This document shows, piece by piece, positions 34,088 to 64,000 of a stretch of 64,000 bases of DNA. Source of the DNA: Verrucomicrobiota bacterium. Its GTDB lineage: Bacteria; Verrucomicrobiota; Verrucomicrobiia; Limisphaerales; Palsa-1400. A program made the translations under genes and the position numbers. The DNA lies in the NCBI GenBank assembly GCA_049517295.1, contig JBEKSF010000013.1, forward strand, positions 2,087-66,086, read 5' to 3'. Within the stretch, counting starts at the first letter, position 1. Each line of letters begins with the position of its first letter. The notes under the pieces were generated by a model. It had not been told where the DNA came from and ran no database searches. It worked only from the letters and a program-made list of their open reading frames with translations.

Positions 34088-34288
34088 AGGCGCCGCGTTG
34101 CAATGGACTTTGGCGGTTCATCGTCCATTGGGTATAGCGCAACGCGACCCGGACCGCAATCATCTTTCATCCGGGGCGGCGGATTCAGCGGGCAGGGTGA
34201 GCGGTCTGCGACATTGACATGGCTCGTAAACTGCTATATACACGCGGGGGAAGGACGTTTAGTGTTGAAACAGTCAAATCGTCGCGCC

Positions 34289-37583: not shown

Positions 37584-37587
37584 AACC

Positions 37588-46180: not shown

Positions 46181-46311
46181 GCGTTGCATTCGGGTAGGCC
46201 AGACTCGGGAGCCAGCGGGGGCCAAATAGAGTTGAGAAGACCTCTTTGAATCGAGTTTGCGGGGGCGATTTTTCGTTCAGGTCCGGCGCTCGTGAATCGT
46301 AAGTGCCGACC

Positions 46312-47361: not shown

Positions 47362-47587
47362 AATTTGAACCGCAAACTAGCCGCGCGCCGCCCGAACGAA
47401 AAGACAAATCCCCGGAGGTTGGCGGCCAAGCGTTTCCGTTGAGCAATCCGCTGACCGGTCTGGCAGCCTGGCGCCAACCGCCATTATCAATCATCGCCTT
47501 CAACAGATTTGGCGCGGCGCCAGGCGGGAGCAAAGATCCGTTGGAATCGGGCGAGCGGCTGGTGGAGGTCGCAGGTGTGGATTGGGA

Positions 47588-48670
47588 TTATGGAGAAGCG
47601 GTGGAAAGCTTGTAGATGACGGTGTGGTGATAGACCTGGCCGGGCTTGAGCACGACGGTGGGGAAATTGGGATGGTTGGGGGAATCCGGGAAATTCTGCG
47701 GCTCGAGACAAAAACCGGTGCGGCGGCGGTAAACCTGACCTCCTTTGCCCTTGATGGCGCCGTCGAGGTGGTTGCCGCTGTAAAACTGGACGCCGGGCCA
47801 GGTCGCCAGCACTTCCAACACGCGGCCAGTGGACGGTTCGGCGACGCGGGCGATGAGGTCCAAGCGGCCCATCGGGTGGTTGAGGACAAAATTGTGATCG
47901 TAGCCGAGGCCGGATTTGAGTTGCGGGTCGTCGGCCTCGATGCGGGCGCCAATGGGAGTGGGGCGGCGGAAATCGAAAGGTGTGCCGGCGACGGGGCGGA
48001 GTTCGCCGGTGGGAATGAGCGTGCTGTCCGCCGGAGTGAAACGGTCGGCGTCGATCCAGACTTGGTGACCCAGGACATCGCCCTTGGCGGCCAGATTGAA
48101 ATAGGAATGCTGAGTCAAGTTGACAATCGTGTCCTTGTCGGTGGTCGCGGTGTAATCCAGGCGCAAACCATTGTCGGGGCCCAGCGCATAGACGGCTTTA
48201 ACGGAAAGGTTGCCGGGGAATCCTTCCTCGCCATCTTTGCTGTCGTAAGTCAACTCCAGGGCGGGTCCGAGGGGAGAGCGGGCGGTGGCGGCGCGCCAGA
48301 CGACTTTGTCGAAGCCTTTGATGCCGCCGTGGAGGGAGTTTGGACCGTCGTTCGCGGCCAGAGAATAGGGCACGCCGTTCAAGGTGAATTTGGCGCCGGC
48401 AATGCGATTGCCGTAACGGCCAATCAGCGCGCCGAAGTACGGGCTGAGGGCGAGGTAGCCGTCCAGATGGTCGTAACCGAGGACGACGTCGGCGAGGTTG
48501 CCCTGGCGATCCGGCGCGAGGAACGAGACAACAATGCCGCCATAGTTGCAGATGCGGACCTCGACGCCATTGGGGTTGCGGAAGGTGAAGAGATCGACGG
48601 GCGAGCCGTCTGGGGCTTTGCCAAACGGGGTCTTGGTGAGAACCGTGCCGGGATTTTCAGAGCTGTGCAT
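47588..48670 (-). CDS. galM: Aldose 1-epimerase
   Basis: GRYGNRI, LHGG, NLTQHSYFNL, GYDHNF, GFCLEPQ.FPD. Confidence 0.95.
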   Translation of the reverse strand: MHSSENPGTVLTKTPFGKAPDGSPVDLFTFRNPNGVEVRICNYGGIVVSFLAPDRQGNLADVVLGYDHLDGYLALSPYFGALIGRYGNRIAGAKFTLNGVPYSLAANDGPNSLHGGIKGFDKVVWRAATARSPLGPALELTYDSKDGEEGFPGNLSVKAVYALGPDNGLRLDYTATTDKDTIVNLTQHSYFNLAAKGDVLGHQVWIDADRFTPADSTLIPTGELRPVAGTPFDFRRPTPIGARIEADDPQLKSGLGYDHNFVLNHPMGRLDLIARVAEPSTGRVLEVLATWPGVQFYSGNHLDGAIKGKGGQVYRRRTGFCLEPQNFPDSPNHPNFPTVVLKPGQVYHHTVIYKLSTASP

Positions 48671-48740
48671 ATCTTTAATAAGGCTTAAAAAGTAAAGCCA
48701 ATCGGGCGAACAAGTCAAGCCGGGGGCGTTTGGATTGGGT

Positions 48741-51700
48741 TCAGTTGGCGGGGACGGTTTGCCAGGGTTGCAGGCGGACGGGGCCGATCAGGCCGGAGGG
48801 CGGGAGCGCGTCGTCCTTTTTCCAGTGGCGCCACGTGGTGAAGGTGAGGCGGCCGGTGGGGCTGGGCTTGCCGTCGAGCAGCCAGTCGGGCCAGGCCTTG
48901 AGCCGGTCGCCTTCCCATTGGCGATCGTCGGCCAGTTGTTCATCGCCGATGAGGCGGTTGGGCCAAAGATTGGTCACTTTGACTTGCAGACGATTGATGC
49001 CCGGCTGGGCGACGGAGGTGAGGTTCACGCGGAATGGCGGCTTCCAGAGAGTGGCCAGCAGTTGGCCGTTGAGGGAAACTTGGGCGAAGTTTTTTACGAC
49101 GCCAAGGTCAAGCCAGGCCTCGCGCCCCTGGCGCAGGAAATCGGCGGGAATCTCAATGTCCTTCTGGTAAGTCGCTGTGCCGGAGAAATAGCGCACGCCT
49201 GGGTTTGTGTGGTCGGCCCAGGAGATCAATTTGTCGAGGTGGATTTGCGAGGGCGCGCCCCAATCGGGCGGGAATGCGAGGTCCCAGTCGTTGGTCAGTT
49301 GGACGGGGGCGGGAAGATCATCAACGGAGACTTGGAGAGTTTTTCCCGCGGCCGTTGTGAGCTGGAAAGCGCCGTTGATCGATGTTCTGACGCACGGGCG
49401 GCCATCCAGGCTGGCGGCGTTCCATGCCGGCGCCTCGCCCTCGGAAGCGGATGGTGGAAGAGTCAAAGGTTCATTTTCGCTGACAGTGGCGGTCTTTGGC
49501 TGGCCATCGAGGGTGTAATCGACACGCAATTGTTTTGTGTGCCCGAAAGCAGGGTCGCCGCCAAACTGGCTGTTGCTGGCCAGGATTTCGAGTGAACCAT
49601 TGTTCGAAAGGCCGGCGACGGTGGCGGTAACGTCATTGGTTCCCGCGCCGTCCTCGGCCTGATAAAGCGCGCGGACAATATGAATTTTAGGCGGGGCTGG
49701 CGCGGGATGCTGGGATTCCGGGCCGCTGACCGCGATAACAGTGTCCATTTGGAGGGCGGGGCGGCGGAAGATAACAAAGACCGATCCGGCGGGATCGAAC
49801 TGGATATGCACGGTGGTGCGGCCATCTTGCTGGCTCCATATCGGGGCGGGTTCGATCTGCCCGGTATCGGGGTGCCAGAGTTCGGGCAATTTGCCGGAGA
49901 TGCGGAAGGTGCAATCGGCCGACTCGAATTGGCGGCGCTGGTTGGAGAGGAAGTAAATGTCGGCCTGATCGGTCAGGCGGTGGCAGAAGGCCAGTTTGGC
50001 CGAAGGCGAAGAGTTGGTGAACTCGAAGTCGGGCTTCAAGCCGCGGGCGGCGAACAATCCGGCCAGAGAGGGACCGCAAATAACGCGGCCCTTGCCGAAG
50101 GGATGTTCGGTGACGGTGGATCCATCGCATTGGCCCCAAAGCTCGTCAGCCAGCGATTTGACCTTTTGATCGCATTTGGGAAACCCTTGGAGGCTCGGGG
50201 AATGCCGCGGGCGGGGGCCGGCGACAGTGAGGCCGTCGCGGACGAAGCCGCGGATTTTGCGGAGAAGTTGCGGAGTCATTTGCGGGTCGTCGTGCAAAAG
50301 GACCAGAGCCGAGTAACTGGCGCCGCTGAGGAGTGTAAGGCGGCCATTTTTCATCCGCGCACGATGCAATAGAACGTCGGAGTTGATGGCGTCATAATCG
50401 TAGCCGGCAGGGAGGGGGGGGTTGATGTCGGGCATTTCGGAGGGGGCATTTTCGCCGCAGAAACAGGCAGCGTCGGCGACGAAGCGGCCTTGCTGGAGGA
50501 GGAATTGGCAGCGGGAGACATAGTCGATCCAGGCATTGCCCTGATCCCACCAGGTGACGGTACGCTCGAAGTTCAAACCCCACTGGCCCATGGTCATCCC
50601 GGGCCAGCGGTTGGTCCAGGGTTGCATGGCGTAGCGATGAAAGATGTAGCGGTTGAGGCCGGTGCAAAACATCAAGTCGCCCAGCGGTTTGAGCGCCCAG
50701 GGATCGTTTTGCCAGCGGGCCTGCTCCGGCGAGGAGGTGAAGGATTCGGCGGCGGCAATTTGCTTGCCGTAGATGTGAGCGATCGAAGCGGCGAGCTTGA
50801 CAGAGGGGTCGCCGTGGGTGCCGCTCCAGAATTCCCCCATTACAACGTCAGCGGCACGGCCACACTGCAACGACTCGTAAGGACCGGTGTAAGGCTCGAA
50901 GGAGGCCAACAGGCCGTATTGGTGGCACAACTGGGCAAAATGACCGTAGTAGTTTTCCGCGAACAGATCGGCGATGGTGCGGCGGACATCCCACAGGAAG
51001 CGTTCGGAGACGTCCATGTTGTCAACAACGCGGCCCGAGAAAGCCGGGAGCAGGAGGCGGGGATCGTAGCCGCGGCGTTTTTTGAATTCGGCGCGGAAGT
51101 TTGCGGACCAGTTTTGGCCGCCGACCTCGTAACTGTCAATTAGAACGTTGTTGAAGGTTTTTCCGGCCAGGGGACCGGCGTCGGCGATGAGGTTTTGGAC
51201 AAATCCCGCCCAGTGGGCGTCGAGGGCCGCGGGGGTGAATTTGTCGCACTCCAGGCCGGTGCCCTCCGGGGGGGCGGGATGATTATCCTGGTCCTTTGGC
51301 GTGTAGCCAACGCGCAGGATGATCCAATCGCCCGCCGGCACCTTCCATTTGAGTTTGCCATCGTGACGGAGCCTGGAGGTGAGGTCCACGATGCCGCCGC
51401 GCGCAATGGCCTGGCCCGGGGCGGCGGTGGTTGCGGAGGAGGAGTTGACAAAGTCCCCGCTGAAACCTGCCTTGGCCTGGAGGTTGTCAATTTCCATGCT
51501 TTTGGTGAGGGGGGCTTTGAAAGCGAGCGTTGCGATGTCGCGGTAGAAGCCGAACATGGTGGGAGGCTGCGGCAGAGCGCCATCGAAGAGGGAGGGGCCG
51601 GTGAGGCGCAGTTCGCTGGTGACGACGTGTTGCATGGCGTGCTCCGGCGTGTTCCACGGGCCGCCGCTGCTGGACCATCCGGCGCAATTGTGGACGCAAA

Positions 51701-52022
51701 TCTGAAGGCCCAGGCGGTCGGCTTCGTTGAGGCAATGGGTGAACAACTGGTGCCATTCCGGGCTGTTGAATTTGACCGGGCCGGCGGGAATCTCGCAATC
51801 GACGTTGAAGATTTGCGCGCCGCTCAATCCGATTTGCTTCATGGCTTCGAGGTCGGCGGTGATGCCTTCCTTGGTGACGTTGCCGTTCATCCAATGCCAC
51901 CAGGTCTGCGGGCGGGCGGAGGGCGGAGGGGATTGAAAGCCTGCTTCAAGCGGGTCGGCGGCGAGGGCGGCGCACGGGAGCAAGAAAAAGAAGGCAAGAG
52001 AGGGAATGATTCGATTTTTCAT
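48741..52022 (-). CDS. Secreted GH106-family glycoside hydrolase (alpha-L-rhamnosidase-like)
   Basis: Signal peptide from MKNRIIPS; PQTWWHWMNGN, GWSSSGGPW, DSYEV, AAESFT, VTNLWPNRLIGD, PSGLIGPV. Confidence 0.9.
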   Translation of the reverse strand: MKNRIIPSLAFFFLLPCAALAADPLEAGFQSPPPSARPQTWWHWMNGNVTKEGITADLEAMKQIGLSGAQIFNVDCEIPAGPVKFNSPEWHQLFTHCLNEADRLGLQICVHNCAGWSSSGGPWNTPEHAMQHVVTSELRLTGPSLFDGALPQPPTMFGFYRDIATLAFKAPLTKSMEIDNLQAKAGFSGDFVNSSSATTAAPGQAIARGGIVDLTSRLRHDGKLKWKVPAGDWIILRVGYTPKDQDNHPAPPEGTGLECDKFTPAALDAHWAGFVQNLIADAGPLAGKTFNNVLIDSYEVGGQNWSANFRAEFKKRRGYDPRLLLPAFSGRVVDNMDVSERFLWDVRRTIADLFAENYYGHFAQLCHQYGLLASFEPYTGPYESLQCGRAADVVMGEFWSGTHGDPSVKLAASIAHIYGKQIAAAESFTSSPEQARWQNDPWALKPLGDLMFCTGLNRYIFHRYAMQPWTNRWPGMTMGQWGLNFERTVTWWDQGNAWIDYVSRCQFLLQQGRFVADAACFCGENAPSEMPDINPPLPAGYDYDAINSDVLLHRARMKNGRLTLLSGASYSALVLLHDDPQMTPQLLRKIRGFVRDGLTVAGPRPRHSPSLQGFPKCDQKVKSLADELWGQCDGSTVTEHPFGKGRVICGPSLAGLFAARGLKPDFEFTNSSPSAKLAFCHRLTDQADIYFLSNQRRQFESADCTFRISGKLPELWHPDTGQIEPAPIWSQQDGRTTVHIQFDPAGSVFVIFRRPALQMDTVIAVSGPESQHPAPAPPKIHIVRALYQAEDGAGTNDVTATVAGLSNNGSLEILASNSQFGGDPAFGHTKQLRVDYTLDGQPKTATVSENEPLTLPPSASEGEAPAWNAASLDGRPCVRTSINGAFQLTTAAGKTLQVSVDDLPAPVQLTNDWDLAFPPDWGAPSQIHLDKLISWADHTNPGVRYFSGTATYQKDIEIPADFLRQGREAWLDLGVVKNFAQVSLNGQLLATLWKPPFRVNLTSVAQPGINRLQVKVTNLWPNRLIGDEQLADDRQWEGDRLKAWPDWLLDGKPSPTGRLTFTTWRHWKKDDALPPSGLIGPVRLQPWQTVPAN

Positions 52023-52056
52023 GTTACAGCGAACAACGATTAGCGGAGGGCGGGGC

Positions 52057-54942
52057 TTAATGCGAGAGCAAAGTGACGACGCGATAGATACGTCCGGCGG
52101 GCGGCGCGGAGGGATCGGTGACATTAATGAGGACGCCCCGGCCCAGGATGTTGGTGAGCGTTTGCCATTGGGCGTCGGAGAGGTTGTTTTTGAATTGCAC
52201 GCTGCTGGTGTGCGCGCCGGGGGCCTGGAACTGGCAGGAGAAGGTTTCACCCTGCGCGACGGGGTTGAGCAGTTGGACGGGAATAAACTGGAAGGCGGGA
52301 AGGCCGTCATTGATCAGGCTGGCCGCGCCGGTTTGGCGATTGATCGAATACCATTGCAGCGCGGAATCGGCGGTGGCCTGGTAATAAAGGAGGCAAAAAG
52401 GATAAACGCCGGTTTGCTGGACGATGAAGTCCTGGACGGTGGGATTGGACGGATCGGTGACGGCGCGGCCGCCATTGTAACTCATAATAACCGGCGTGGA
52501 GAGCGGTGACGTGCCCAGGCTCAGTTGAAAACCATCGTCGCTGATCACGGCAAAGCGGTAAATGCCGTTGGTCAGCGGGAGATAGGTGACGGCGGCCAGG
52601 GAGAAGAACTGGGGGAAATTGGTGTAGGAGCCGGGCAGGGTCGTGGCCACGTAGGGAAAGGGGGAGACGTTGTTGGTGAAGAGGCCCACCGGGGGAAGAT
52701 TGGTTCCCGCGCCGCGATAATCGATCACGTTGGTCTCGGCGTAGAAGCCGCTTCCGTCGGGGCCGGCGGCTTCGTTGGAAAAAGGCTCTCCGGTGGCGGG
52801 ATTGATGATCTGACCGGCGAGCTGTTTTTCGGCGGTTGCGGCAGAGGGCGGAAACAAGGAGGAGGAAGCGCCGTTGGTGGCCTTGACGATTTGAATGATA
52901 AACCCGCGATCGACGGCGGAGCCCAGCGGCAAGGCGGCAGCCGCCGGGAGGACGGGCAGGGATTGGACGGTGAACTGCCATTGGTTGGTCTGCCAAACCG
53001 AGCCGTCGGAAAAAATCGCCTGCACCGTGTTGAGCGAGCCGCCGGGGAGAAGCGAAGGGACAGCATAATTGACAGCAGCGCCGGCGGCGTTGTTCGAGAC
53101 TGCTAGGGCACTGGTCACTTCCACGCCGTTGAGAAAGAGCCGGATGCTGGCGGGTTGCACGGCACTGGCGCGGTTGGCGATGGTGAAGGTGATCGTGACG
53201 TCGGGAGCGATTCCGGTCGCGTCCGGCGTGGGATAGCCGGCGGCGATGTAGGGCGGCAACGGGGCGGTGTTGGTGGAGGGGAAGAAGAGCCAGTAATTGA
53301 TATTGCAGGAGGCGGCCAGGCAGGTGGCGCGCAAGGTGTTTGTGCCCGCCAATTTCAAGACGACAGGATTGCCGAAGAAATCGGTCAGCGGGACATTGGT
53401 GTAGGATTGGCCGCCGCCGGCGCCGGACGGGCAAAGCAACGTGCCGAGGGCGGCGCGCGGCTGGGTGGAATTGGCGGTGGTGGGCGAGGCCAGGCGTTCG
53501 AGCAGCATGGCGGGATTGCCGGAGACCGCCGCCATCCGGCCATAGACGACGCAGGCGAGATTGCTGAAGGAGCGGGTGTAGTCCTCCCATTCGCCCACCT
53601 GGATGGAAGTGAGGCTGTAGTCGGGGAGGTCTTGCTGGAAATAGATCGGGCGGGGCGTGTCGGCATTGGTGATGACATCGACAAAGCCGCTGTCTTGCGG
53701 GCGATAGACATTGGCGCCGGCATCCGGCGCGAAGGGCTTGAAGGCGTCCACGTTGGCGAAGGCGAAGGCGTTGGTTGAGAGGGCGCCCAGGCCGTCTTCG
53801 GCCGCGCCGAATTCATCGACGACGGGGTCTGGGATGAAATTGCCGCCGTAAAAGTTGTAGTCCTCCGCCTCGATGAATTGCAAATCGAAGGACCATGTGT
53901 TGAACGAGAAGGTCTGAGTGGCGGCATTCCCGCTGAGATCGACGACGTTGATGGAGGCGGTGAAGGCGACGTTGGTTTGCGGCGGGACGGTAGTATTGAC
54001 GTACCAATGGGCGGGCGCGCCGGAAAAGGAGAGGCCGTTGGTTTGCACCGCACCATTTAAGGTCAGCGTGATACGATTGGTCGCGACGCCGGAAAAGGGG
54101 GAATAGACCTGGAAAGACACGCCGCCGGCGGAGGGATCAACAAAGGCGGCGCCATTGGCGGGAAGAACGTTTTCAATGAGGGGCGGCAGGGCGGTGGCGG
54201 CGCTGACGGATAGTTGGTTGAAAAAGACGTTGCCGCCTGCGCCCGCATTGAGATTGTAACAAGCGAAACCATTGACCGGACCGGCATGGAGGAACGGCTC
54301 GGTGGGAAAAGAGGCAAGGAGCGTGACGCCGTCCGCGGTACGAATCATCAGGAAATAATTTGTGTTTGACAACGGGGCGATTTCCAGGAGGAGGCCGTTT
54401 TCATTCCAGCCGATGCCGGTGTCGGTCACGCCGTTGCCGTCGGAAAGCAAATAATCGGCGCCGCCGCCCGGGAAATAGAAGCTCAGGCACGCGTTGGAAG
54501 CGATGGCGGCGAGGGTGTTGGTGGCCACCGTGCCGGAGGCGGGCAGGAGACTGATTCCGGCCGCGCCGCCGGCGGCCACGTCGTTGTTGGCGAAGATGAC
54601 CTTGAAGAGCTGTGCGGGGGCGAGGGAGGCGCGCAAGCCGCGCCAGGCCACTGCTTCGTTGTAATCCGGGCCATTGGCGTAAAGGCCGAAGGATTCATCG
54701 CCGGTGTCCATGGCCGGGATGCCGGAGGTATAAAGAAAAAAACCGGAGTAATCGTCGGAGGCCGGAGTGTTGTTGTTGTCCTGGAGAATCCAAGGCAGAA
54801 AGCCGCTGCCGCCGTTTTCGCCATTGCTCCAGCCGCTGGTGTAATTGGAGGCCTTGTCCTGGGCGACGGTCTGGGCGTTCACCCCGCCTGACCGGACGAG
54901 CACGAGCAGGCAAAGCAAAAACAAACGGGACAATCGGCTCAT
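52057..54942 (-). CDS. Secreted multidomain protein (Ig-like, CBM6-like, PA14-like), no catalytic domain recognised
   Basis: Signal peptide; FIEAEDYN...GEWEDYT (CBM6-like); GIYRFAVISDDGFQL (PA14-like); ends RIYRVVTLLSH. Confidence 0.72.
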   Translation of the reverse strand: MSRLSRLFLLCLLVLVRSGGVNAQTVAQDKASNYTSGWSNGENGGSGFLPWILQDNNNTPASDDYSGFFLYTSGIPAMDTGDESFGLYANGPDYNEAVAWRGLRASLAPAQLFKVIFANNDVAAGGAAGISLLPASGTVATNTLAAIASNACLSFYFPGGGADYLLSDGNGVTDTGIGWNENGLLLEIAPLSNTNYFLMIRTADGVTLLASFPTEPFLHAGPVNGFACYNLNAGAGGNVFFNQLSVSAATALPPLIENVLPANGAAFVDPSAGGVSFQVYSPFSGVATNRITLTLNGAVQTNGLSFSGAPAHWYVNTTVPPQTNVAFTASINVVDLSGNAATQTFSFNTWSFDLQFIEAEDYNFYGGNFIPDPVVDEFGAAEDGLGALSTNAFAFANVDAFKPFAPDAGANVYRPQDSGFVDVITNADTPRPIYFQQDLPDYSLTSIQVGEWEDYTRSFSNLACVVYGRMAAVSGNPAMLLERLASPTTANSTQPRAALGTLLCPSGAGGGQSYTNVPLTDFFGNPVVLKLAGTNTLRATCLAASCNINYWLFFPSTNTAPLPPYIAAGYPTPDATGIAPDVTITFTIANRASAVQPASIRLFLNGVEVTSALAVSNNAAGAAVNYAVPSLLPGGSLNTVQAIFSDGSVWQTNQWQFTVQSLPVLPAAAALPLGSAVDRGFIIQIVKATNGASSSLFPPSAATAEKQLAGQIINPATGEPFSNEAAGPDGSGFYAETNVIDYRGAGTNLPPVGLFTNNVSPFPYVATTLPGSYTNFPQFFSLAAVTYLPLTNGIYRFAVISDDGFQLSLGTSPLSTPVIMSYNGGRAVTDPSNPTVQDFIVQQTGVYPFCLLYYQATADSALQWYSINRQTGAASLINDGLPAFQFIPVQLLNPVAQGETFSCQFQAPGAHTSSVQFKNNLSDAQWQTLTNILGRGVLINVTDPSAPPAGRIYRVVTLLSH

Positions 54943-57900
54943 GGAAAAACCTGGATGAGATAAAAGGTGTCCGGCGCGTTGGTGTAATTGAGATCGAAGA
55001 AAGAACTGTTGGAGCCGGCGGCGCTCAAGACCGGGCTGATGGGCTGGAATGGATTGTTGAGGTTGGTGGTGGCCAGGACTTGGTAGGATTTATTGGAGAC
55101 GCTGTTCCAAGAGACAAGGCCGTTGGCGACGCTGGTAATCTGGAGCCACGTGGCGGGGTTGGTGGGATTGGTGCCCGCCACAATGGAGTCGTAAGCAGGC
55201 AATCCGAAAACGGGCGAGGAGCTGTTCGGATCGAAAACCAGCACCGTCCGTTGGGCGCTCAGGAGTTGGGCGCCGTCGAAGGAGACGTTGATGACATCGG
55301 CGCCCGGAGGCGGAGCGAGCCATGTATAATTAAAGGTGCGCATGGCCGGTTCACAGGTTTCGCCCCCGATGTAATAGAGAGGCTCGAAGCCGGCGGTCCA
55401 TCGCGGCTGGGTGACGCCGTTGACGGAGACAGTGAAATTCTCAATGTCATTGGTGTCGAGATTCGGCGTGAAACAGGCCTGGATGGTATAGACGCTGTTG
55501 GAGCCGAGAAGGAAGGCCATTCCGTCGGCGGGCGGGGAAGTGATTTCAAGGGAGGCGGCGGGCGCGGCGGTAAAAAAGGAATCGGTCAGTGTCGTGACGC
55601 GGTTGGTCAAGACCTGCGTGGTGATTTCACTGAGCAAGACGGTGATCGTGGCGGGGCCGTTGGTGGGCACGGCCGCGTAGGTGAAGTGGAATTCCTGCGG
55701 CAGATTCGGATAGAGAGCGTTCAAGGCCGGGGTGGGCACGGCAACCGGCGGGGAACTGACGAAGATCGGAACGCCATTGCGCGAGCCATTGCCATAATTA
55801 TAGCCGGTGGCAACGTCGTCATTGGCGGGGCTGCTGTCAGCGATATTGATCGACGCGGCCGTCGCGGTGCCGTCGGCCCGGACAATGACGGTATAGGTGG
55901 AGTTGGTGATGGTCGTGCCCGGGGCCGGAGAAACAATCACGCCGGACGGGGTGGCCGCGTCGTAATAGAAGGTCTCCAGAAAGGTATTGAAGACGCTGGA
56001 TTTGCCGGTGCGCGGCAGGAAGGGGCGCGCGCGGACGATGTGCCAGCCGGGCTGGAGACCGGTGAGCACGCTGTTGGTGCTCAGATCATTGGCGGTCCAG
56101 ACCAGCGCGGCGGCGGGATTGAAGTTGGTGATGGAGGCTTCGGTCAATCCATAGAGCTTGGCGGGGTCGGCGTCGGAAATGGGCTGGATGTTGTTGTCAA
56201 AAAGGGCGACGGCGTAACGGACGGTTGCGCCGCTGGTATTGACAGCGGCCGGGAGAGTGCCTTTCCACCAGTCGATGGTGGGATCGGTTGGATCCTGGGC
56301 CATCAAGGCGAGGGGGACAGTGCGGGTGGTCCCGGCGCCGTGGCCGTAGGCGCCCTGGGGAGCACTGCCATCGGTTGTGTAGTAAATCGACCCTTGGGTG
56401 ATTTGCGACTGATAGCCGACTTTGACCCAGACATCGACGGACTGGCCGGGGGAGGGATTGAGGGGATTCAACTGGCTGGGCGGCGGGTTGGCGGCGATGT
56501 TCACGATGTCAGAGGGATTGTGATAGACCCATAAGGCGGTGCCGTTGGTGATGCCGGCGGCATTGCCTTCCCCCAGCGCGACCGTGTTCGAGCCGCCGAC
56601 GGTGTAAGCATAGACTTCGGCTCCAAGGGAGGTGACGTTGTCGCGGGAGATGTCCCCGGCGGCGAATTTTTCCGGCCCGTAACGGAAATCAAAGGCGGTT
56701 TGCTCGTAACCGAGAAAGACATCGTCAGCGTAACCCGGCTTGTTGTCGCGCAAATCGAGCACGCCGGCGGTGTAGATGTTGGAGGCGCCCAGATCCATCT
56801 GGCTGTTGAGGTCGATGCCGCCGTCGAGCTTGACCAAAGCATTGACAGAAGAGGCATCGTTGCGGACGAGGATGTCAAAGGGGGCGTTGGTGAGGATGGG
56901 AAAGTCGATGGCGTAGGTGAGGTTGCTCACGTTATGGCCGGCGACGAGGTTGCCGTTGGAGTCGATGCGTCCGCGCATTTTGAACGGATAAATGGGATTG
57001 AAATTGGGGTCGCCGTTGGCGCCGTCGGTTCGATGAAAGGTGAGGCTGGGCACCGGGTTGCCTCCCTGGCGGAAGGTGATGGCGTCGCTCAAGGCGGAGC
57101 GGCTGGGTTCCGGCCATTGATAGCCGTAACAGACGTAGCTGCCGGCGGGGATTTTGAATTCGATCGCGCCGCCGCCGGGAGCGAGGGTCTGGCCGCCGAT
57201 GAAGACGGCGCGATTGACGGGATTGGGGTCGTTGGCGGTGGCCTGGGCTTCGGCGAGGCTGGCCGTGGCGTTGCGCACGAGCAATTTTGAACAGGCGCCG
57301 CTGTTATCGAAGACCCAATCCTCGTTGGTGCTGCCGGTCGGGCCGGAAGCCAGTTGCGATAGAACCGAGCCGGGCGGGAAACCGACGACCAGGCCGACGC
57401 CGCGGGAATTGATGACGGGAAAGCAGTCGTAATAGGTGCCGTCGGTCAATTGGGCGACTCCGTCGTCGAAGCATTGATCACCCTGGCCGGCGACCATGTA
57501 GTCATTCATTGCGAACAAAAGGGTGACCTGGTCCTGGGCATTGGCGGGGCTGCCTTCGCGGTTGTCGTATCGCTCGAAACAAACGACGGTGCTGTCGCTC
57601 CAGCGCGAGGTCTGCAAACCGCGGGCCAGTTGATGCTGCAAGAACGCGATGTCCGGCATGGTTTGGTCGCCGAACTGGCCGAGGTAGTTGGCATTGGGAA
57701 TGCCGGGGAAGGGAGGGCTGCTTTGGGATTCATTGTAGCCATCGGAATAGATCTCCGGCAGGCCCACGCGCATAAAATTGTAGGCGTTCTGCAAGGCGCG
57801 CACGGCGTAGGAAATGCCGCAATAGGTATTGTCCGCGCTCTGCGAAAACTGAACTCCTTGGAAGCCGATGATTGAGTCGCCGTCCTGCTGGAGAGACCCC

Positions 57901-59042
57901 CAGTTGGTCGAATCCATGCCGCTCATGGTCGCGCCGGGGATGCCCAGGATGCCGTTGAGGGCGTTCTGGCCGGGCGCGTTGAGCAGCCTCATGCCGCGGG
58001 TGATGTATTCGCTGAAGCTGGGCGGCTCGCCAAGATGCTCGCCGAAGATCATCGCGTCATTGCGCGGCGCCTCGGTGTCAAAAAGGCTGGTGCGGTTGTC
58101 ATTGGTGTCGAAGTAGCCGTTGCCGGTCACGTTTTGGCCGTAGCCGTGGACGTAGTTAAACATGGTCTGGATTGCGCCGCAGTAGCCGTTGGGCGAATCG
58201 GTGGTGTCGCCAAAGAAGCCCGACGGGACGTGTTTGACGGCGTCCAGGCGAAAGCCATCGCATTTGGTTTCGTTCAACATCCAGATGACGGCGCGGCAGA
58301 GGTAGCCGCCGACGTCCTCCGGAGTTGGATTGCCGTTGGTGCCGTTGAAGGGATGCCAGGGGCCGGCGATGGCGGGCAGATTGGTGTCCATGTAGAATTC
58401 GGGATGGGTGGGGTGGCGGACGAAGAAGATTTTTGGAATGGTGTCGCCCAAGGCCGGGCCGAAGTTATCGTTGATTCCGCCGGGTTCCTGGGCCAGATCG
58501 ACCAACCCCAGCAGCGACTCATTCTGGACATCCCATTGGTCGTTCCAATCGCTGACTTGCGGGACGTTTTGAAAGAAACCATTGGGAGTGGTGAGCAAAT
58601 GGAAGTCCTGCGGAAAAAGGCCTGGGTAATAGTTGATGGGGGTGGCGCTGTTGTAACCGGGCACGACGTAGCCGCGGTGGTTGACAATGTTGTCAAAATA
58701 GACGCGGATGCCGAAGCGATGAGCGATGAGGACGGCTTGCCGCAACTGGGCCTCGGTGCCGTACATGGTGGCAATGGAGCCTTGCTGGTTCTGGCTGCCC
58801 AGGTCGAAGGGATCGAACTGGTCATAACCGACGGAGAAGACGCTGCTGGCTTTGTAGGGGGGAGGCAACCAGAGGCTGTCATAGCCGGCTTCGGCGATTT
58901 CGGGCATTTTCTGGGCCAACTGAGTCCAATTGACGTTGAAAAGCTGGAGCATCGATTCGGCGCGGGCGGCGCCGCCGCACGGGCACGAGAGGCAGAGGAG
59001 AAAGCAGAGAGAACGCAGTTTTCTAATGAGATTCCGTGGCAT
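54939..59042 (-). CDS. Large secreted GH13 alpha-amylase-family protein with Ig-like and C-terminal domains
   Basis: GYDSLWLPPP, GYDQFDPFDLG, region I DNIVNH, region II GFRLDAVKHV, region III FGEH. Confidence 0.85.
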   Translation of the reverse strand: MPRNLIRKLRSLCFLLCLSCPCGGAARAESMLQLFNVNWTQLAQKMPEIAEAGYDSLWLPPPYKASSVFSVGYDQFDPFDLGSQNQQGSIATMYGTEAQLRQAVLIAHRFGIRVYFDNIVNHRGYVVPGYNSATPINYYPGLFPQDFHLLTTPNGFFQNVPQVSDWNDQWDVQNESLLGLVDLAQEPGGINDNFGPALGDTIPKIFFVRHPTHPEFYMDTNLPAIAGPWHPFNGTNGNPTPEDVGGYLCRAVIWMLNETKCDGFRLDAVKHVPSGFFGDTTDSPNGYCGAIQTMFNYVHGYGQNVTGNGYFDTNDNRTSLFDTEAPRNDAMIFGEHLGEPPSFSEYITRGMRLLNAPGQNALNGILGIPGATMSGMDSTNWGSLQQDGDSIIGFQGVQFSQSADNTYCGISYAVRALQNAYNFMRVGLPEIYSDGYNESQSSPPFPGIPNANYLGQFGDQTMPDIAFLQHQLARGLQTSRWSDSTVVCFERYDNREGSPANAQDQVTLLFAMNDYMVAGQGDQCFDDGVAQLTDGTYYDCFPVINSRGVGLVVGFPPGSVLSQLASGPTGSTNEDWVFDNSGACSKLLVRNATASLAEAQATANDPNPVNRAVFIGGQTLAPGGGAIEFKIPAGSYVCYGYQWPEPSRSALSDAITFRQGGNPVPSLTFHRTDGANGDPNFNPIYPFKMRGRIDSNGNLVAGHNVSNLTYAIDFPILTNAPFDILVRNDASSVNALVKLDGGIDLNSQMDLGASNIYTAGVLDLRDNKPGYADDVFLGYEQTAFDFRYGPEKFAAGDISRDNVTSLGAEVYAYTVGGSNTVALGEGNAAGITNGTALWVYHNPSDIVNIAANPPPSQLNPLNPSPGQSVDVWVKVGYQSQITQGSIYYTTDGSAPQGAYGHGAGTTRTVPLALMAQDPTDPTIDWWKGTLPAAVNTSGATVRYAVALFDNNIQPISDADPAKLYGLTEASITNFNPAAALVWTANDLSTNSVLTGLQPGWHIVRARPFLPRTGKSSVFNTFLETFYYDAATPSGVIVSPAPGTTITNSTYTVIVRADGTATAASINIADSSPANDDVATGYNYGNGSRNGVPIFVSSPPVAVPTPALNALYPNLPQEFHFTYAAVPTNGPATITVLLSEITTQVLTNRVTTLTDSFFTAAPAASLEITSPPADGMAFLLGSNSVYTIQACFTPNLDTNDIENFTVSVNGVTQPRWTAGFEPLYYIGGETCEPAMRTFNYTWLAPPPGADVINVSFDGAQLLSAQRTVLVFDPNSSSPVFGLPAYDSIVAGTNPTNPATWLQITSVANGLVSWNSVSNKSYQVLATTNLNNPFQPISPVLSAAGSNSSFFDLNYTNAPDTFYLIQVFP

Positions 59043-59061
59043 CCGCAGCCAATCGGTTGAT

Positions 59062-60483
59062 TTACTCGGTCAGCTTCGCGTGCTCAAGCTGCGTTTGTTC
59101 GCCCGCGGCTTTGACGACGGACCGATGGTAAATCCGCCAACCGAATCCGGGCAGATTCAATGCCGTGAGGTTGTCGGCCCCGGCATCGGGCATGCCGGCG
59201 ATTTTGACGGGTCGAAAATCCCCGGCGTGGTCCACATCGACGGATGTTTTTTGGGGCCGATTGGAAAAATTGATGACGACGACGAACTCGTCGCTCTCAT
59301 CGCGGCGCATGAAGGAAAGTGTGTTGGTGGCGTCGGAGGCATGGAGCCAGGTGACGCAATCGTTCTGGAAGGGCGCGAATTTTTTCCGCAAGGATATCAG
59401 GCTGGAATAGATGGCGGGGAGGTCCGGGCGAGCTTTGGGATGCCAGAAGACGGGGATTTTCTCGAAAAGGGCGGGGTCGCCGGATTCGGTGGCGTCACCG
59501 GCTTCCATGCCGTTGTAAAGAAGAGGAACCCCGTCCAGTGTGAACATCAGCGCCGAGGCGGCCAAGGCGCCGCGGATGCCGTAGCGGGCGACGGCGCGAG
59601 CCTCATCGTGGTCGTCGCTGATGCGCATGTGCAAGGCGCCCGGCGGGAACTCGCGGCGGGTCTGCTCCCAGGACTGCTGCAAGTCCAGGGCCGGGGCGCC
59701 ATCGAGCATGACCCGATTGAGGGCGGAGAGGAGCGGCCAGGAATAATCGACGTCAAAGGCCTTGACCATCAGGTCCGGCTTGCTGGCCTCGGCCAGAAGG
59801 ATGATGTCGGGCTTGACCTTCAGCAATTCGGCGCGGGCCTCTTCCCAGAAGCTGGTCGGCACATCGCCGGCGACGTCGCAGCGAAAGCCGTCGAAATCAA
59901 AGCCGGAGGGATCGATCCAGTATTTCATCATTGCGATCATGTAGCGGCGCAATTGGGGGTTGGCGTAATTGAGGCCGGCGACGTCGGACCAGGCGGGATT
60001 GGGCGGCAGGATGTGGCCGTCGGCATCCTGCTTGTAGAAATCGGGATGACTCATGAGGACGCAGTCCCAGGCAGTGTGATTGGCGACCAAGTCCATAATG
60101 ACCTTCATGTCGCGGCGATGGGCTTGGGTGATGAGGCGTTTCAGATCGTCCGCGGAGCCGTAGTCGGGATTGATGGCGTAGTAATCTTTGACGGCATAAG
60201 GGCTGCCGACGTCCCCTTTGCGCATTTTTTGGCCGATGGGATGAATGGGCATGAGCCAGAGAATGTCAATGCCCAGGCCCTTGAGATCGTCCAGCCGCGC
60301 GGTGATGCCGTTGAAGTCGCCATTACTGGAGAAAGCGCGCGGAAAAACCTCGTAAATCACGCCGTGGCGCAACCAGGAAGGAGAAGCGAGCGCGGCATTT
60401 TGGGCGGAGATGATGCCGCCGCCAACGAACAGGGTAACGAGGCAAAGGGTCGAAACCGCCCGGCGCAGCGAGAAGGATTTCAT
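59062..60483 (-). CDS. Exported GH13 alpha-amylase-family hydrolase
   Basis: Signal peptide from MKSFSLRR; IYEVF, LWLMPI, DLVANH, GFRCDVA, LAE, DHD. Confidence 0.92.
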   Translation of the reverse strand: MKSFSLRRAVSTLCLVTLFVGGGIISAQNAALASPSWLRHGVIYEVFPRAFSSNGDFNGITARLDDLKGLGIDILWLMPIHPIGQKMRKGDVGSPYAVKDYYAINPDYGSADDLKRLITQAHRRDMKVIMDLVANHTAWDCVLMSHPDFYKQDADGHILPPNPAWSDVAGLNYANPQLRRYMIAMMKYWIDPSGFDFDGFRCDVAGDVPTSFWEEARAELLKVKPDIILLAEASKPDLMVKAFDVDYSWPLLSALNRVMLDGAPALDLQQSWEQTRREFPPGALHMRISDDHDEARAVARYGIRGALAASALMFTLDGVPLLYNGMEAGDATESGDPALFEKIPVFWHPKARPDLPAIYSSLISLRKKFAPFQNDCVTWLHASDATNTLSFMRRDESDEFVVVINFSNRPQKTSVDVDHAGDFRPVKIAGMPDAGADNLTALNLPGFGWRIYHRSVVKAAGEQTQLEHAKLTE

Positions 60484-60572
60484 GTTTTCAGGCGAGCGAG
60501 CGGTTTCAGGACTGGTTGCAGAACAAAGGACGGCTCTGCGCGCGGTCAGGGCGCCCCAGGCGCATGCGGAGT

Positions 60573-61373
60573 TCACTGGGCAAGCCAGGCCAGATCCCTG
60601 CTGCGGGTTACCCCAACCTGGTCGATGTCAGAGTAGGTCACGGGGTGTACGGTCTCAGTCTCAAACCACTTGTGAAGTTCCACGTGTCCATCGGCAAAGC
60701 TCACGCCGCAGGCCAAATTATGGTAACTGGCCGGCAACTCGGTGAAGGTGCCCGTGCCGTTGGTGCAGCCCGGATCAATGTACATGATTTCGTCGTCGAT
60801 GCTGTCGGGATGCTCATCACTAAAAACCCAACTTTGGGCCGTGCCGGGAGCAATCAGATCGGACATTTTCTTGGCCCACCACATCTGCACGCCGCCCCAA
60901 TTGGAAAAGGTATATTTCTTGCCGTCGCCGACGGCGCCGTCCATCGAGATACTGCGGCAACGATGCGACCAACCGAGCGGAGTTTGATGAGGGCCGACGT
61001 AAATGTCGGCGGGACACCACTCGATAAGGTAGTTTTTGCCAACATAGGGTCCCATTGAAGAAACCCGTGGATCAATCAAGTACATGTAGTTGGTGTTCTC
61101 GGGATTGGTGCTCCAATCGAGGATTCCTTCCGCCCAATCATGGGTGGCTTCGTAATCCTGGGATTGGTCGTTGTTGAAGGCCAGGCGGTCGCCGAAGTCG
61201 TTGGCGTACATGGTCCACGCAACTTGCATTTGCTTTTTTGCGCTGATGCAATTGGCGCCTGTGGCTTGCTGTTTGGCCCGGGCGAGGGCCGGGAGCAAAA
61301 TCCCAGCAAGGATCGCAATGATCGCGATGACAACCAACAACTCAATAAGCGTGAATGCCTGTTTGTTTTTCAT
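60573..61373 (-). CDS. Prepilin-type N-terminal cleavage / H-X9-DG (DUF1559-like) protein
   Basis: MKNKQA|[24 protein letters not shown]; DEHPDSIDD; HNLACGVSFADGHVE. Confidence 0.9.
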   Translation of the reverse strand: MKNKQAFTLIELLVVIAIIAILAGILLPALARAKQQATGANCISAKKQMQVAWTMYANDFGDRLAFNNDQSQDYEATHDWAEGILDWSTNPENTNYMYLIDPRVSSMGPYVGKNYLIEWCPADIYVGPHQTPLGWSHRCRSISMDGAVGDGKKYTFSNWGGVQMWWAKKMSDLIAPGTAQSWVFSDEHPDSIDDEIMYIDPGCTNGTGTFTELPASYHNLACGVSFADGHVELHKWFETETVHPVTYSDIDQVGVTRSRDLAWLAQ

Positions 61374-61382
61374 ACCTTTATT

Positions 61383-61428
61383 GCTCCAGTCCCGCCGGGA
61401 GGCGGATGGCGCCCCCGGCGGACGGAGC
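61383..61428. other. Intergenic stem-loop
   Basis: GCTCC..CCGCCGGG-A-GGCG / CGCC-CCCGGCGG..GGAGC pairing between the CBM gene and the pilin gene. Confidence 0.5.
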
Positions 61429-61437
61429 GTCAATGCA

Positions 61438-63231
61438 TTAAGGATAAACCAACTCGAAGTACAAGTTGCCGGCGCCAATGGTATAGTTCGTCGTAGCGAT
61501 TCCGCCCGGCGCCACGATCAGGTTCGTTCCGTCGGTGGCAATTTGGGGGGTCCAAACAGTGTGGGCATCCAGGGAGGTGGCCGTTTGCAAATGAACATAC
61601 TGGCGCCCCAGCCAGGAAATAGAAACCTGGTTGCCGCTGGTGGTGATCGAAAGATCGCCAAAGGAAGGTTCGGAAGAGCTGGCGGCGCCTTGGGAGCCGA
61701 AGACATCCACCGGCATCGTATAATTGGGCTGGCTGCGAATATAGCGGGTATGATTATCGGCAAAACCAGCTTCGTTGTCGTTGCCATCGATGCTGTATTT
61801 GTAAACCAGATCAATGTTTTGTCCGCGGTTAACCGGAACTGTCACGGTGTACAAGGACGAATCGCCAATCTCTGTCATTTGGAACTGTGCCGGGGCGTTT
61901 AACACTCCCCATGTCCAGAAACTATTGTTGTTCCCGCCGTTGATTCCGTTGATATAAACAGGAAGGCCCGATCCATTAAACACCGTGCCGTCGGTGCCCA
62001 CCGCATTGGTCATATCGACAGTAAAGGTCACCATGCAATTTGTGACATAGACGACATCGTCCAAGGCGCTGGGGCCTTCAAAACTGAAGAAATCCGGCCC
62101 GACCACATAACTGGCGTTTGTGGTGCGAAGAGCGAACTGGCGGTTGCCGCCGCCGGGGACATTCTCCCACTGTGTGCCCGGTTGGAGAACGTATTTATAG
62201 TTCACAACCGTTCCGGGCGGGTCAACGTACTCGATATCGGCGACAAAGATATTGGTGTTGTTGAGGCCCGGATCGTTGGTCATGTCAACCCCGTTAGAAT
62301 CCCAAGAGTCAAAGTCTCCGTGAAGTTGGATCACGCTGAGCGGATTTCCATTGGTAAAGGTTCCCAAGGCCTCCTGAACGGACATATCGGCCTCAAATTT
62401 CACGTAGTTCGTCACCGAGGACGAAAGCCGCTGGTCGCTATAATAAACAATCGGCAGGGTCTGATCGATGCTGGCGAAGAAGCGGTTGTTGTTGTTGTCG
62501 CGGTCGCCGTCGGCGGCGGAGGGGGATTCATACTCGTTGGCTGTGCCGTTGAAAATGACATATTTGAATTCCTCAGCCGCGCCCGGGGAGGCGGCGAGGG
62601 CATAAGTCCCCACATAGACATTGGAGGTCACTATCCCCTGATAATTGGTGGTCGCAATGGCCGGATTGTTGGTGAGAGGGAAAGTGTCATTCCAACCCTC
62701 AAATGATCCCTGGCTATAGAGGCTATCGACGTTGGTGTCGAAGTTGCCCAGGTTGATCTGTTCGGACATATCGACCTGGAAGGTGATATTGGCCGTGGTG
62801 ACCGGGCCGTCGTCGTTAAAGAATACAACTGGCAGTGCCAGGGTCGCGCCGCTGGCGGCCGGGAGCAGGCCGCAACGATTATTTGCGTCGGCGGTCGTCT
62901 CATAGGTGCTGTTGTCGATGACATACTTGAATATCGTGGCTGTGCCGTTGGCCTCGGCGGTGTCATTGGTCGTGCCGCTATAGAGGTATGGGTTTGAGCT
63001 CGAGGCGTTGGTGGTCAACAGAACGCCGACGCCCCAGCCATTGAAGGATCCATGCGCGGACACCGTATCTGTCCCAGGGGTAAAGCCGTTACCGACCATG
63101 TAGGTCATATCGACCTGGAAGGTGATCTGGGCGTTGGTCAGGGTTTGGGCGGAGACGAGAGTCGCCGAGCACAACAAGGCGCCGGCGCACAGACACCGCG
63201 AGACAGTATTAGAGAGGAGGTTTTGCTTCAT
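61438..63231 (-). CDS. Secreted non-catalytic protein with four CBM20-like (starch-binding-fold) repeats
   Basis: Signal peptide; repeats start ITFQVDM, ITFQVDM, VKFEADM, VTFTVDM, with G.F.GW-like, (F/Y)KY and NR-like motifs. Confidence 0.78.
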   Translation of the reverse strand: MKQNLLSNTVSRCLCAGALLCSATLVSAQTLTNAQITFQVDMTYMVGNGFTPGTDTVSAHGSFNGWGVGVLLTTNASSSNPYLYSGTTNDTAEANGTATIFKYVIDNSTYETTADANNRCGLLPAASGATLALPVVFFNDDGPVTTANITFQVDMSEQINLGNFDTNVDSLYSQGSFEGWNDTFPLTNNPAIATTNYQGIVTSNVYVGTYALAASPGAAEEFKYVIFNGTANEYESPSAADGDRDNNNNRFFASIDQTLPIVYYSDQRLSSSVTNYVKFEADMSVQEALGTFTNGNPLSVIQLHGDFDSWDSNGVDMTNDPGLNNTNIFVADIEYVDPPGTVVNYKYVLQPGTQWENVPGGGNRQFALRTTNASYVVGPDFFSFEGPSALDDVVYVTNCMVTFTVDMTNAVGTDGTVFNGSGLPVYINGINGGNNNSFWTWGVLNAPAQFQMTEIGDSSLYTVTVPVNRGQNIDLVYKYSIDGNDNEAGFADNHTRYIRSQPNYTMPVDVFGSQGAASSSEPSFGDLSITTSGNQVSISWLGRQYVHLQTATSLDAHTVWTPQIATDGTNLIVAPGGIATTNYTIGAGNLYFELVYP

Positions 63232-63333
63232 ATATTGATTAAAGTGCATAGTGATCGTGGCGAAGATACCCTGTTCCCGCCACCCGTTCAACCGCACGTT
63301 TGTGCGGTGCGATTTGAGGCGCCCTAAATCTGC

Positions 63334-64000
63334 CTATTTTATCGGCCAGCCTCCGTGTTGTTTGATGCTCGCGTCAATCTCCCCCATCAATCGCCCCGTT
63401 TCCAGCAGCGCCCAGATGATGCGTTGATATTCCGCCTGCTCCTCGTACCCGAGCGTGCGGCCCATTCGGTCTTTGAGCCAGCGTTGCGCGGGCAGGTAAC
63501 CGCCGATGGGAAACGCCCACGCCGATTCCGGCACAGGCTCGAAATACTGCCGGTCGTTGATCCAAACGCGGCCCGCTTTCACATCCGGCCACGGACCCGT
63601 TTCCACATGCCCGCATGGGTTGGAGCTTTTCATCCGTTTTGCGCCAGGAATGACCAGGGAATCGACAGGTTGGAAACGGACGTCACGGACTTGGTCGGTT
63701 CCTTTCACAGGAAATCCAACTGGAGTGTTTTTCCCCTGTCCGCGCGCGTGCAAGTCCACCAACCACAGGCCCAGCCCCGCCAACTCTCCAAAGAGGTCCC
63801 AATTGCTGGTCAGCGGCAGTCGAGGAAAGTCAGCGCGGAGAAAATCCGCATAACGTTCCCGATAGGTTGGACTGTGGAATATGGCGTAGGCGTAATTGAA
63901 GATGCATTCCGGGCCGACTTCCCGCCGGGACGTGCGGCCGTATCCATCCGGCACAAACTTGCAACCGAGTCGTTGACAAAACTCTTTGACGAAAGAGGCG
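63334..64000 (-). CDS. Type ISP restriction-modification / DNA methyltransferase C-terminal specificity region (5'-partial)
   Basis: IFNYAYAIFHSPTYRERYADFLRADFPRLP, VWIN..QYF, IGGYLPAQRWLKDR; the frame is open to the right edge. Confidence 0.82.
   Translation of the reverse strand, partial: ASFVKEFCQRLGCKFVPDGYGRTSRREVGPECIFNYAYAIFHSPTYRERYADFLRADFPRLPLTSNWDLFGELAGLGLWLVDLHARGQGKNTPVGFPVKGTDQVRDVRFQPVDSLVIPGAKRMKSSNPCGHVETGPWPDVKAGRVWINDRQYFEPVPESAWAFPIGGYLPAQRWLKDRMGRTLGYEEQAEYQRIIWALLETGRLMGEIDASIKQHGGWPIK

Follow-up and report, generated by a model that had tools for sequence, protein, structure and literature searches.

The Sus system of Bacteroides thetaiotaomicron and the other polysaccharide-utilization loci (PULs) of Bacteroidota are among the closest described counterparts of the locus analyzed here, a run of seven genes in a 64,000-nucleotide (nt) window of contig JBEKSF010000013.1 (C13 hereafter), which belongs to the 6.3-Mb genome of a Verrucomicrobiota bacterium from peat (GCA_049517295.1). 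Like these systems, the locus associates substrate-specific starch binders with GH13 enzymes and with a dedicated sensor and regulator, and the sensor domains, Reg_prop and Y_Y_Y, are those of the hybrid two-component PUL regulators of Bacteroides; as in Sus, the binding components seem to yield more RNA than the rest of the locus, to judge from contig depths. The differences are as marked as the likeness. The window locus has no SusC-type TonB-dependent transporter (three Plug domains are found in the whole genome; no search for the SusD family was made), its binder carries a signal peptide, CBM20 modules and a C-terminal tail and is not a lipoprotein, and a prepilin-like protein is its obligatory partner. 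Kinase and regulator are separate proteins, and a permease of the major facilitator superfamily (MFS), encoded outside the window, acts at the inner membrane.

Two further systems resemble the locus through its prepilin-like protein, called the pilin below. The Pul secreton of Klebsiella likewise links pseudopilin-type proteins to secreted, alpha-glucan-degrading GH13 enzymes under sugar control, but there the whole machine, with more than ten genes, lies beside its cargo, whereas the present locus holds a single pilin-like gene, twice as large, with the machines encoded elsewhere. Competence pseudopili and the DNA-capturing type IV pili (T4P), exemplified by ComGC, would share with it the bringing of a polymer to or through the outer membrane by a ligand-specific pilin fibre. 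Among the NCBIfam models, ComGC gives the N-terminus of the window pilin its best score, and the genome encodes eight PilT-family ATPases; here, however, a glycan would be the ligand, carried by a binder distinct from the pilin, and retraction and uptake are hypothetical.

By its sequence the pilin comes nearest to the H-X9-DG/DUF1559 proteins (TIGR04294, PF07596), with which it shares the N-terminal cleavage/methylation domain, the C-terminal motif, a length of about 270–300 amino acids (aa) and the occurrence of tens of paralogs per genome; it differs in scoring below the TIGR04294 cutoff, in lacking PF07596, and in belonging to one clade tied to a starch binder. These proteins form one of the largest function-less families in Planctomycetota, Verrucomicrobiota and their relatives. 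In two papers DUF1559 is treated as a function-unassigned family (PMC10632474) and as a putative solute-binding family (PMC2754498), and the Kiritimatiella paper describes a type II secretion system (T2SS) and no TonB-dependent uptake genes, with pilins unmentioned (PMC5148204). Full-text searches of the literature, with subscription journals outside their coverage, yielded no paper tying pilin-like genes to glycan loci in these phyla. The matter bears on glycan uptake by abundant polysaccharide degraders that have few TonB-dependent receptors, and the present case offers a binder with a recognizable ligand, a strict clade specificity of the pilin, environmental RNA evidence, and a paralogous pair led by a riboswitch.

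Seven tightly spaced open reading frames, all on the minus strand and separated by short gaps, lie within 47588–63297; delimited by the likely gene starts, which were chosen from the translations and correspond to the upper coordinate of each gene given below, the locus extends over 47588–63231. Gene A (61438–63231) encodes a secreted starch-binding protein, hereafter the binder, and is followed by the pilin gene (60573–61373), by GH13a (59062–60483), which encodes a secreted alpha-amylase-family enzyme of about 473 aa, and then by a larger GH13 gene (GH13b) and the genes for a 961-aa protein, a GH106 enzyme and galM. The order and common direction of the seven genes are those proposed in an earlier reading of the sequence alone, and Pfam and NCBIfam matches agree with its labels for the prepilin, the two GH13 enzymes, GH106 and galM. 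By eye, five of the seven proteins begin with a signal peptide, namely GH106, the 961-aa protein, the two GH13 enzymes and A; the signal of the pilin is of class III, and in galM no signal peptide is seen. Because the contig stops about 3.2 kb beyond gene A, the locus is cut at this end.

Conservation of the Binder–Pilin Pair

Of 30 genomes from the same family, 14 contain relatives of gene A. In the near-full-length A loci of these related genomes, a pilin relative comes directly after A on the same strand in 15 cases out of 16. We extended the comparison to species-representative genomes of other Verrucomicrobiota and obtained 79 A loci, 74 of which have at least 900 nt of sequence after A. 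A frame with a prepilin motif starts 40–250 nt behind A in 57 of these 74 loci, against a background in which a prepilin gene comes next after 42 of the 4498 genes of this genome; because of this difference, the arrangement is beyond chance. The association also concerns a particular pilin: when the full-length pilins adjacent to A were compared with the 65 pilin paralogs of the genome, the best match was the window pilin in 54 cases out of 54.

Other members of the locus are less constant. In the related genomes, GH13a is adjacent in three loci and 5–13 kb away in five more. Of the wider loci, 24 contain it, and every one of these also has the pilin behind A, as 60 loci do; in 20 of those 60 it follows the pilin on the same strand, and an MFS gene then follows in three. 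GH13b belongs to the module only occasionally: two of the 18 related-genome loci contain it, as do two of the 79 wider ones. For the 961-aa protein, GH106 and galM, no relative turned up in any of the 18 loci, and the 79 wider loci gave two, none and one, respectively; these three genes are local neighbors outside the conserved module, the one for the 961-aa protein being lineage-specific. The sequence-only reading had taken the seven genes as one unit, a view that the absence of the last three from all 18 loci does not bear out. Its proposal that the pilin is a substrate-linked component fares better, given the clade specificity (54/54), the adjacency in both genome sets (57/74 and 15/16), and the RNA contigs that bridge the two genes (see below). 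The conserved unit is a CBM20-type binder with a dedicated H-X9-DG prepilin-like protein, often accompanied by a secreted GH13 amylase.

Identification of the Binder and of the Pilin

The product of gene A is a 597-aa protein with a signal peptide, four sequence repeats and a C-terminal tail domain. It has no Pfam match (E 0.01), and a PDB sequence search returned a chance match alone (E 0.89). Its identification therefore comes from structure: in a model built from 16 orthologs (pLDDT 78), VIA superposed residues 272–384 on the human CBM20 domain 2z0b with a Z score of 12.7 and a root-mean-square deviation of 2.0 Å (97/111 aligned), on the E domain of cyclodextrin glucanotransferase (Z 11.8), and on CBM20 domains of glucoamylases and cyclodextrin glucanotransferases in general (Z 11.3–12.0). 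Residues 147–264 matched another CBM20 domain, 7czj (Z 8.8), so that the fold is recognized in two of the four repeats. A whole-model Foldseek search gave mostly generic Ig-like arrays, the CBM20 match coming out by VIA. Each repeat contains a conserved Trp within a G-x-F-N-G-W-type motif; this Trp may correspond to the Trp of the CBM20 binding site. Orthologs of A show weak CBM_48 and AMPK1_CBM matches (E about 1e-6), and many of its 677 homologs, all named hypothetical, have precomputed AMPK1_CBM, CBM_48, CBM_20 or CBM53 annotations (PF16561, PF02922, PF00686, PF16760). On the modeled fold, gene A carries CBM20-type starch-binding modules and is predicted to bind alpha-glucan. The earlier label "CBM20-like" is thus right, and the alpha-glucan substrate proposed with it agrees with this fold, with the two GH13 genes, and with the GH77+CBM20 and MFS genes of the relatives' loci.

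The pilin ORF is a 301-aa frame, which becomes a 267-aa protein when read from its likely start. It matches PF07963 (36.2 bits, cutoff 21.2) and TIGR02532 (30 bits, cutoff 16.3). The H-X9-DG motif can be located by eye, as H-X9-DG-H, at His219 and Asp229-Gly230 of the 267-aa form, in a segment (residues 216–233) that TIGR04294 matches with 15.4 bits, below its cutoff of 19. PF07596 does not match the pilin (E 0.01), which is also absent from the 12 weak PF07596 matches of the genome. A homology search gave 6939 homologs at E 1e-20; those at about 50–69% identity are named H-X9-DG proteins (JGI), many with a precomputed PF07596. The PF07963 match and the motif support the H-X9-DG prepilin label of the sequence-only reading, with the reservation of the TIGR04294 score.

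Among 111 sequences, Phe1 of the mature end is nearly invariant and Glu5 invariant (in the 267-aa form, F8 and E12). Just before Phe stands Ala in the window pilin, and Gly or Ala in its relatives. Glu5 is needed for fibre assembly, not for cleavage. Besides ComGC, the N-terminus resembles GspG and GspH. The pilin also has two conserved Cys and an acidic motif of the DEHPDSIDD type, and in a PDB sequence search the N-terminal helix was the sole part of the pilin to be matched. Prediction of a complex between binder residues 31–597 and the pilin head (28–267), from alignments of about 100 rows, scored 0.01 against a mark of 0.32, which is evidence neither way.

Presence of the Pair in RNA Libraries

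The window stretch is present in many peat metagenome runs and in metatranscriptome runs. We compared four RNA runs over 46000–64000 by means of assembled contigs and their summed depth. A single contig covers 60400–63244 in run X17 (depth 78.8) and 60509–63200 in run X18, from another study (depth 15.9), while two overlapping contigs span 60139–63244 in run X15 (depths 57.8 and 297.7). The junction between A and the pilin gene is therefore bridged in all three runs, by contigs that terminate within the 5' region of GH13a, 64–434 nt past the pilin stop codon; depth in the initial 660 nt of this gene (bin 59823–60423), which the pilin contigs reach, is 8–30 in X15 and X17. Elsewhere in these three runs, the summed depth is 0–1.8 in the rest of GH13a (bins from 59222 down), 0–1.7 in GH13b and the 961-aa gene, 0–1.6 in the restriction-modification gene that precedes A, and 0–16 in GH106 and galM. 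Contrasts of this kind inside a single locus are not what uniform DNA carry-over would produce. The uncovered stretches, which include most of GH13b and of the 961-aa gene, are not taken as silent. Peat and wetland RNA libraries contain the pair at high depth, and it also occurs in cultivable relatives such as a Pedosphaera-type strain, for which a homolog at 58% identity is recorded.

In X15 and X17, position 63244 is followed by adapter letters, which suggests an RNA end 13 nt upstream of the ATG of A, within the intergenic region 63232–63333 (minus strand), which holds a putative promoter. No promoter consensus upstream of A exceeded the scan threshold, and no terminator-like or structured RNA was found between the pilin gene and GH13a (fold z-score +1.2). 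As a separate observation, the pilin stop codon (60573–60575) is replaced by an Arg codon in one contig of X18, which is from another sample, and is kept in X15 and X17.

Pilins, Tail Domains and Secretion Machinery across the Genome

A protein search returned 82 matches to the window pilin in the genome, and our own gene calls yielded 76 prepilin-motif proteins, of which 65 are 200–400 aa long. We compared 67 immediate co-directional neighbors of pilins with 73 genes from nine random regions lying at least 10 kb from any pilin. Glycoside hydrolase (GH) catalytic domains are not enriched beside pilins (8/67 versus 5–6/73 in controls, p 0.39–0.58). The sequence-only reading had proposed to test whether pilin clades co-vary with neighboring carbohydrate-active enzymes; the comparison of clade and neighbor is positive for the binder (54/54), to which, more than to such enzymes, the pilins are linked. 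The LamG_3 lectin-like domain, on the other hand, is found in 6 of the 67 neighbors and in none of the 73 controls (p 0.011).

A second association involves an unannotated domain of about 85 residues, which closes both GH13b and the 961-aa protein and of which the product of gene A has a diverged version. An iterated hidden Markov model (HMM) detects this tail at the extreme C-terminus of 168 of the 4563 predicted proteins of the genome, with E-values of 2.5e-9 for GH13b and 6.9e-12 for the 961-aa protein, and the C-terminal part of the A-family HMM matches tail-bearing proteins of the same genome. The domain often closes with an FYRL-like motif (window copies at 54942–55196, 52060–52314 and 3248–3502), finds no counterpart in Pfam or NCBIfam even when permissive E-values are allowed, and is a candidate sorting or anchoring signal. 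A pilin gene comes next after 10 of the 168 tail-bearing proteins versus 32 of 4330 other genes (odds ratio 8.5), and a tail protein lies within three genes of 26 of the 65 pilins, compared with 10.4 ± 3.0 for random genes. Furthermore, among the 13 Reg_prop-type kinases, seven lie no more than three genes from a pilin.

The window contains a second cassette organized on the same lines, on the minus strand at 3245–18475. It comprises a Reg_prop/Y_Y_Y kinase (15527–18475), a LuxR regulator (14749–15450), a 1212-aa protein with four LamG_3 domains (11016–14654), two H-X9-DG-type pilins (10010–10942 and 8865–9839), a GntR/periplasmic-binding-type regulator (7569–8711), and a 1346-aa Ig/LamG/lectin protein with the tail domain (3245–7285). 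Because the LamG_3, tail and kinase associations and this cassette point the same way while GH domains are not enriched, the general rule is a sensor, a large secreted lectin-like protein and a pilin, and not a pilin plus carbohydrate-active enzymes. A second recurrent type of pilin partner consists of proteins of 500–560 aa with the regions 2 and 4 of extracytoplasmic-function (ECF) sigma factors and a long extension; they are encoded directly upstream of pilins in three places (contigs C3, C80 and C87; L044, L066 and L068).

One paralogous pair is preceded by a regulatory RNA. The sole cobalamin riboswitch match of the genome (69.6 bits, gathering score 31.5) lies about 200 nt upstream of the gene for a secreted, tail-bearing 543-aa protein, directly followed by an H-X9-DG pilin gene, the whole arrangement being at C79:9524–12254 (L160:2525–5255). 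The 543-aa protein has no Pfam or PDB sequence match. Cobalamin riboswitches mostly govern acquisition genes. Because such a riboswitch precedes a paralogous pair of secreted protein and pilin, the analogy favors a role of binder–pilin pairs in capture or uptake over one in the export of enzymes.

Of the machinery that could act on these pilins, we found one prepilin peptidase gene (Peptidase_A24), six secretins, and 17 T2SSE matches, five of them in frames of 571–589 aa, the size of GspE/PilB. With one peptidase, six secretins and five ATPases of this size, many pilins must share a small number of machines. Retraction motors are plentiful, the eight PilT-family ATPases (above the curated cutoff) being unusually many compared with typical genomes. 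The window itself contains a pilus-type cluster on the plus strand (33359–39227), with a prepilin-motif frame near 34331, a 730-aa protein of no family (35391–37583) and a PilM-type protein (38163–39227).

Regulators and Transporters of the Locus

In relatives, the genes occur in a larger arrangement: a LuxR-type response regulator, a membrane TPR protein of about 750 aa, A and the pilin come first, followed by a Reg_prop/Y_Y_Y histidine kinase accompanied by another regulator, and then by GH13a, an MFS permease and a GH77+CBM20 protein. Orthologs of the kinase (68% identity), of the regulator (87%) and of the TPR protein (64%) are found together in the present genome on C185, a contig of 8.9 kb. 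This contig ends inside an N6_Mtase frame, at the methyltransferase NPPY motif (L019:7084–8865), and the remainder of such a gene, with a Type_ISP_C domain (63334–64000, minus strand), stands at the start of C13, upstream of A. The two contig ends have no direct sequence overlap. Because a restriction-modification gene (N6_Mtase plus Type_ISP_C) is split at the break, we infer that C185 and C13 adjoin and that the insertion of this gene separated two others, for the TPR protein and for A, that lie side by side in relatives. The locus is thus probably controlled by the Reg_prop/Y_Y_Y kinase, the LuxR-type response regulator and the membrane TPR protein.

None of the seven window proteins has a TonB/Plug, ABC or MFS domain in Pfam or NCBIfam. 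The earlier statement that the locus has no transporter is correct for the window proteins and not for the system, since an MFS permease belongs to the operon of relatives and its ortholog (51% identity) lies next to GH77 on contig C27 of this genome. What is missing everywhere is an outer-membrane transporter.

Possible Functions of the Pair

Our preferred reading, which we hold with moderate confidence, is that the pilin is a dedicated envelope partner that mounts or presents the starch binder on a T2SS/T4P-like fibre, in the service of an alpha-glucan locus of the starch/glycogen type. Binder and pilin would probably be co-transcribed from a start just upstream of the binder gene, and the pilin would be cut by the single prepilin peptidase of the genome and incorporated into a type II secretion or type IV pilus-like fibre or placed at its tip. 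Borne on this fibre, it would hold or present the binder at the cell surface; the GH13 enzymes would cut the captured glucan, and the oligosaccharides would pass the inner membrane via the MFS permease, whose gene belongs to the operon of relatives and has a different location in this genome. If the pilin is indeed needed for the capture or uptake of starch, this would represent a new envelope route for nutrients and would change the annotation of carbon turnover by soil and peat Verrucomicrobiota.

Several points weigh against this reading. Assembly into a fibre, contact between binder and pilin, and passage of sugars across the outer membrane are steps that we infer; the sequence-only reading had made the pilin a component of a T2SS/T4P-like apparatus in the place of SusC/SusD, and the genes for such machinery are present, but entry of the pilin into a fibre and a replacement of SusC by it are hypothetical. 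A model of the pilin from 22 sequences has a mean pLDDT of 54 and leaves the head unmodeled, and the window pilin ends nine codons before the end of its relatives, without their nearly invariant Thr-Pro. No pilin lies behind 17 of the 74 A relatives, and one related genome has its orthologous pilin (65% identity), with GH13a next in line, behind an unrelated 1825-aa protein. The genomes compared are kin, so that the counts overstate independence. The RNA contigs establish contiguity and presence and do not prove a single transcript, its strand or its expression level, and two of the three runs that bridge the junction, X15 and X17, come from one study. The lack of GH enrichment beside pilins adds to these points.

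A broader version of the preferred reading would be a pilus-based, modular capture of nutrients in those Planctomycetes–Verrucomicrobia–Chlamydiae (PVC) bacteria that have few TonB-dependent receptors. Each ligand-specific secreted binder, for starch in the window and under the cobalamin riboswitch elsewhere in the genome, would ride with its own H-X9-DG pilin on a retractile T4P/T2SS-like fibre, and the many PilT-family ATPases would draw the loaded binder or its ligand through a secretin into the periplasm, as a functional stand-in for SusC/SusD and BtuB/BtuG. We consider this generalization rather improbable.

Among the alternatives, it is unlikely, though worth serious attention, that the pilin serves export instead. 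It would then be a cargo-specific pseudopilin, induced with the locus, that lets a shared T2SS push out the binder and the tail-bearing enzymes, without any role in capture or uptake. Signal peptides in five of the seven locus proteins would fit such an adaptor, as would the presence in GH13b, the 961-aa protein and (diverged) the binder of the tail domain common to 168 proteins of the genome, and the excess of tail proteins just upstream of pilins (odds ratio 8.5). The six secretins and five ATPases of GspE/PilB size could provide its machine, and the likeness of the pilin N-terminus to GspG and GspH points in the same direction. However, a pilin follows only 10 of the 168 tail proteins, which means that most exported proteins do without a private pilin, and GH enzymes are not enriched beside pilins. 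The cobalamin riboswitch ahead of a paralogous pair also suits acquisition better than export.

It is rather improbable that the pilin works outside any fibre, as an inner-membrane-anchored protein whose periplasmic head binds maltooligosaccharides on behalf of the MFS permease or of the Reg_prop/Y_Y_Y kinase. This idea finds support in the classification of DUF1559, filed by Pfam as SBP_bac_10 and called a solute-binding family in a Rhodopirellula baltica paper (PMC2754498). The conserved acidic and His motifs of the head could form a ligand or metal site, the MFS gene lies within the operon of relatives, and pilins occur within three genes of 7 of the 13 Reg_prop kinases. Yet the tightest conserved partner of the pilin is the secreted binder, not the kinase or the permease, and the Phe1/Glu5 prepilin end conserved throughout the family would be superfluous in a plain membrane anchor, Glu5 being the residue required for fibre assembly.

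Finally, it is highly improbable that the pilin is an incidental neighbor, drawn from a large and mobile paralogous family that settles beside genes for secreted proteins without sharing their function: although the genome has 65 paralogs of 200–400 aa, and ECF sigma factors, BacA, Obg and topoisomerase are among the many unrelated products encoded right beside them, the pilin stays directly behind A in 57 of 74 cases, down to about 30–40% identity in A, the 54 pilins compared all belong to one clade, and RNA-library contigs bridge both genes, so that chance adjacency is practically excluded.

Other Genes of the Stretch

GH13a, read here from a 504-aa frame, and GH13b (54939–59042, minus strand), a large secreted protein of 1367 aa that ends with the tail domain, both match PF00128 above its cutoff of 22 bits (E 1.9e-38, 133.3 bits, and E 2.2e-10, 40.8 bits, respectively). 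By these matches they are assigned to the GH13 family, with the catalytic domain present. The next gene (52057–54942, minus strand) encodes the secreted 961-aa protein, which also carries the tail domain and has no Pfam, NCBIfam or PDB sequence match. It had been described as CBM6/PA14-like. The PA14 part of this label is consistent with its ESM Atlas neighbors (score 0.97), which alone point to it, PA14 being present in 18% of that cluster and in 72–96% of others; no CBM6 was seen, and we therefore call the protein possibly PA14-like.

The last two genes, also on the minus strand, encode a secreted enzyme of the GH106 alpha-L-rhamnosidase family (48741–52022; PF17132, E 7e-206) and the aldose 1-epimerase GalM (47588–48670; PF01263, E 3e-90; NF008277, 303 bits for a cutoff of 240). 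In X15 and X17, contigs of about 2–16 in depth cover both of them, and the genes between this pair and the pilin are nearly uncovered; GH106 and galM (47588–52022) may thus form a separate transcription unit.

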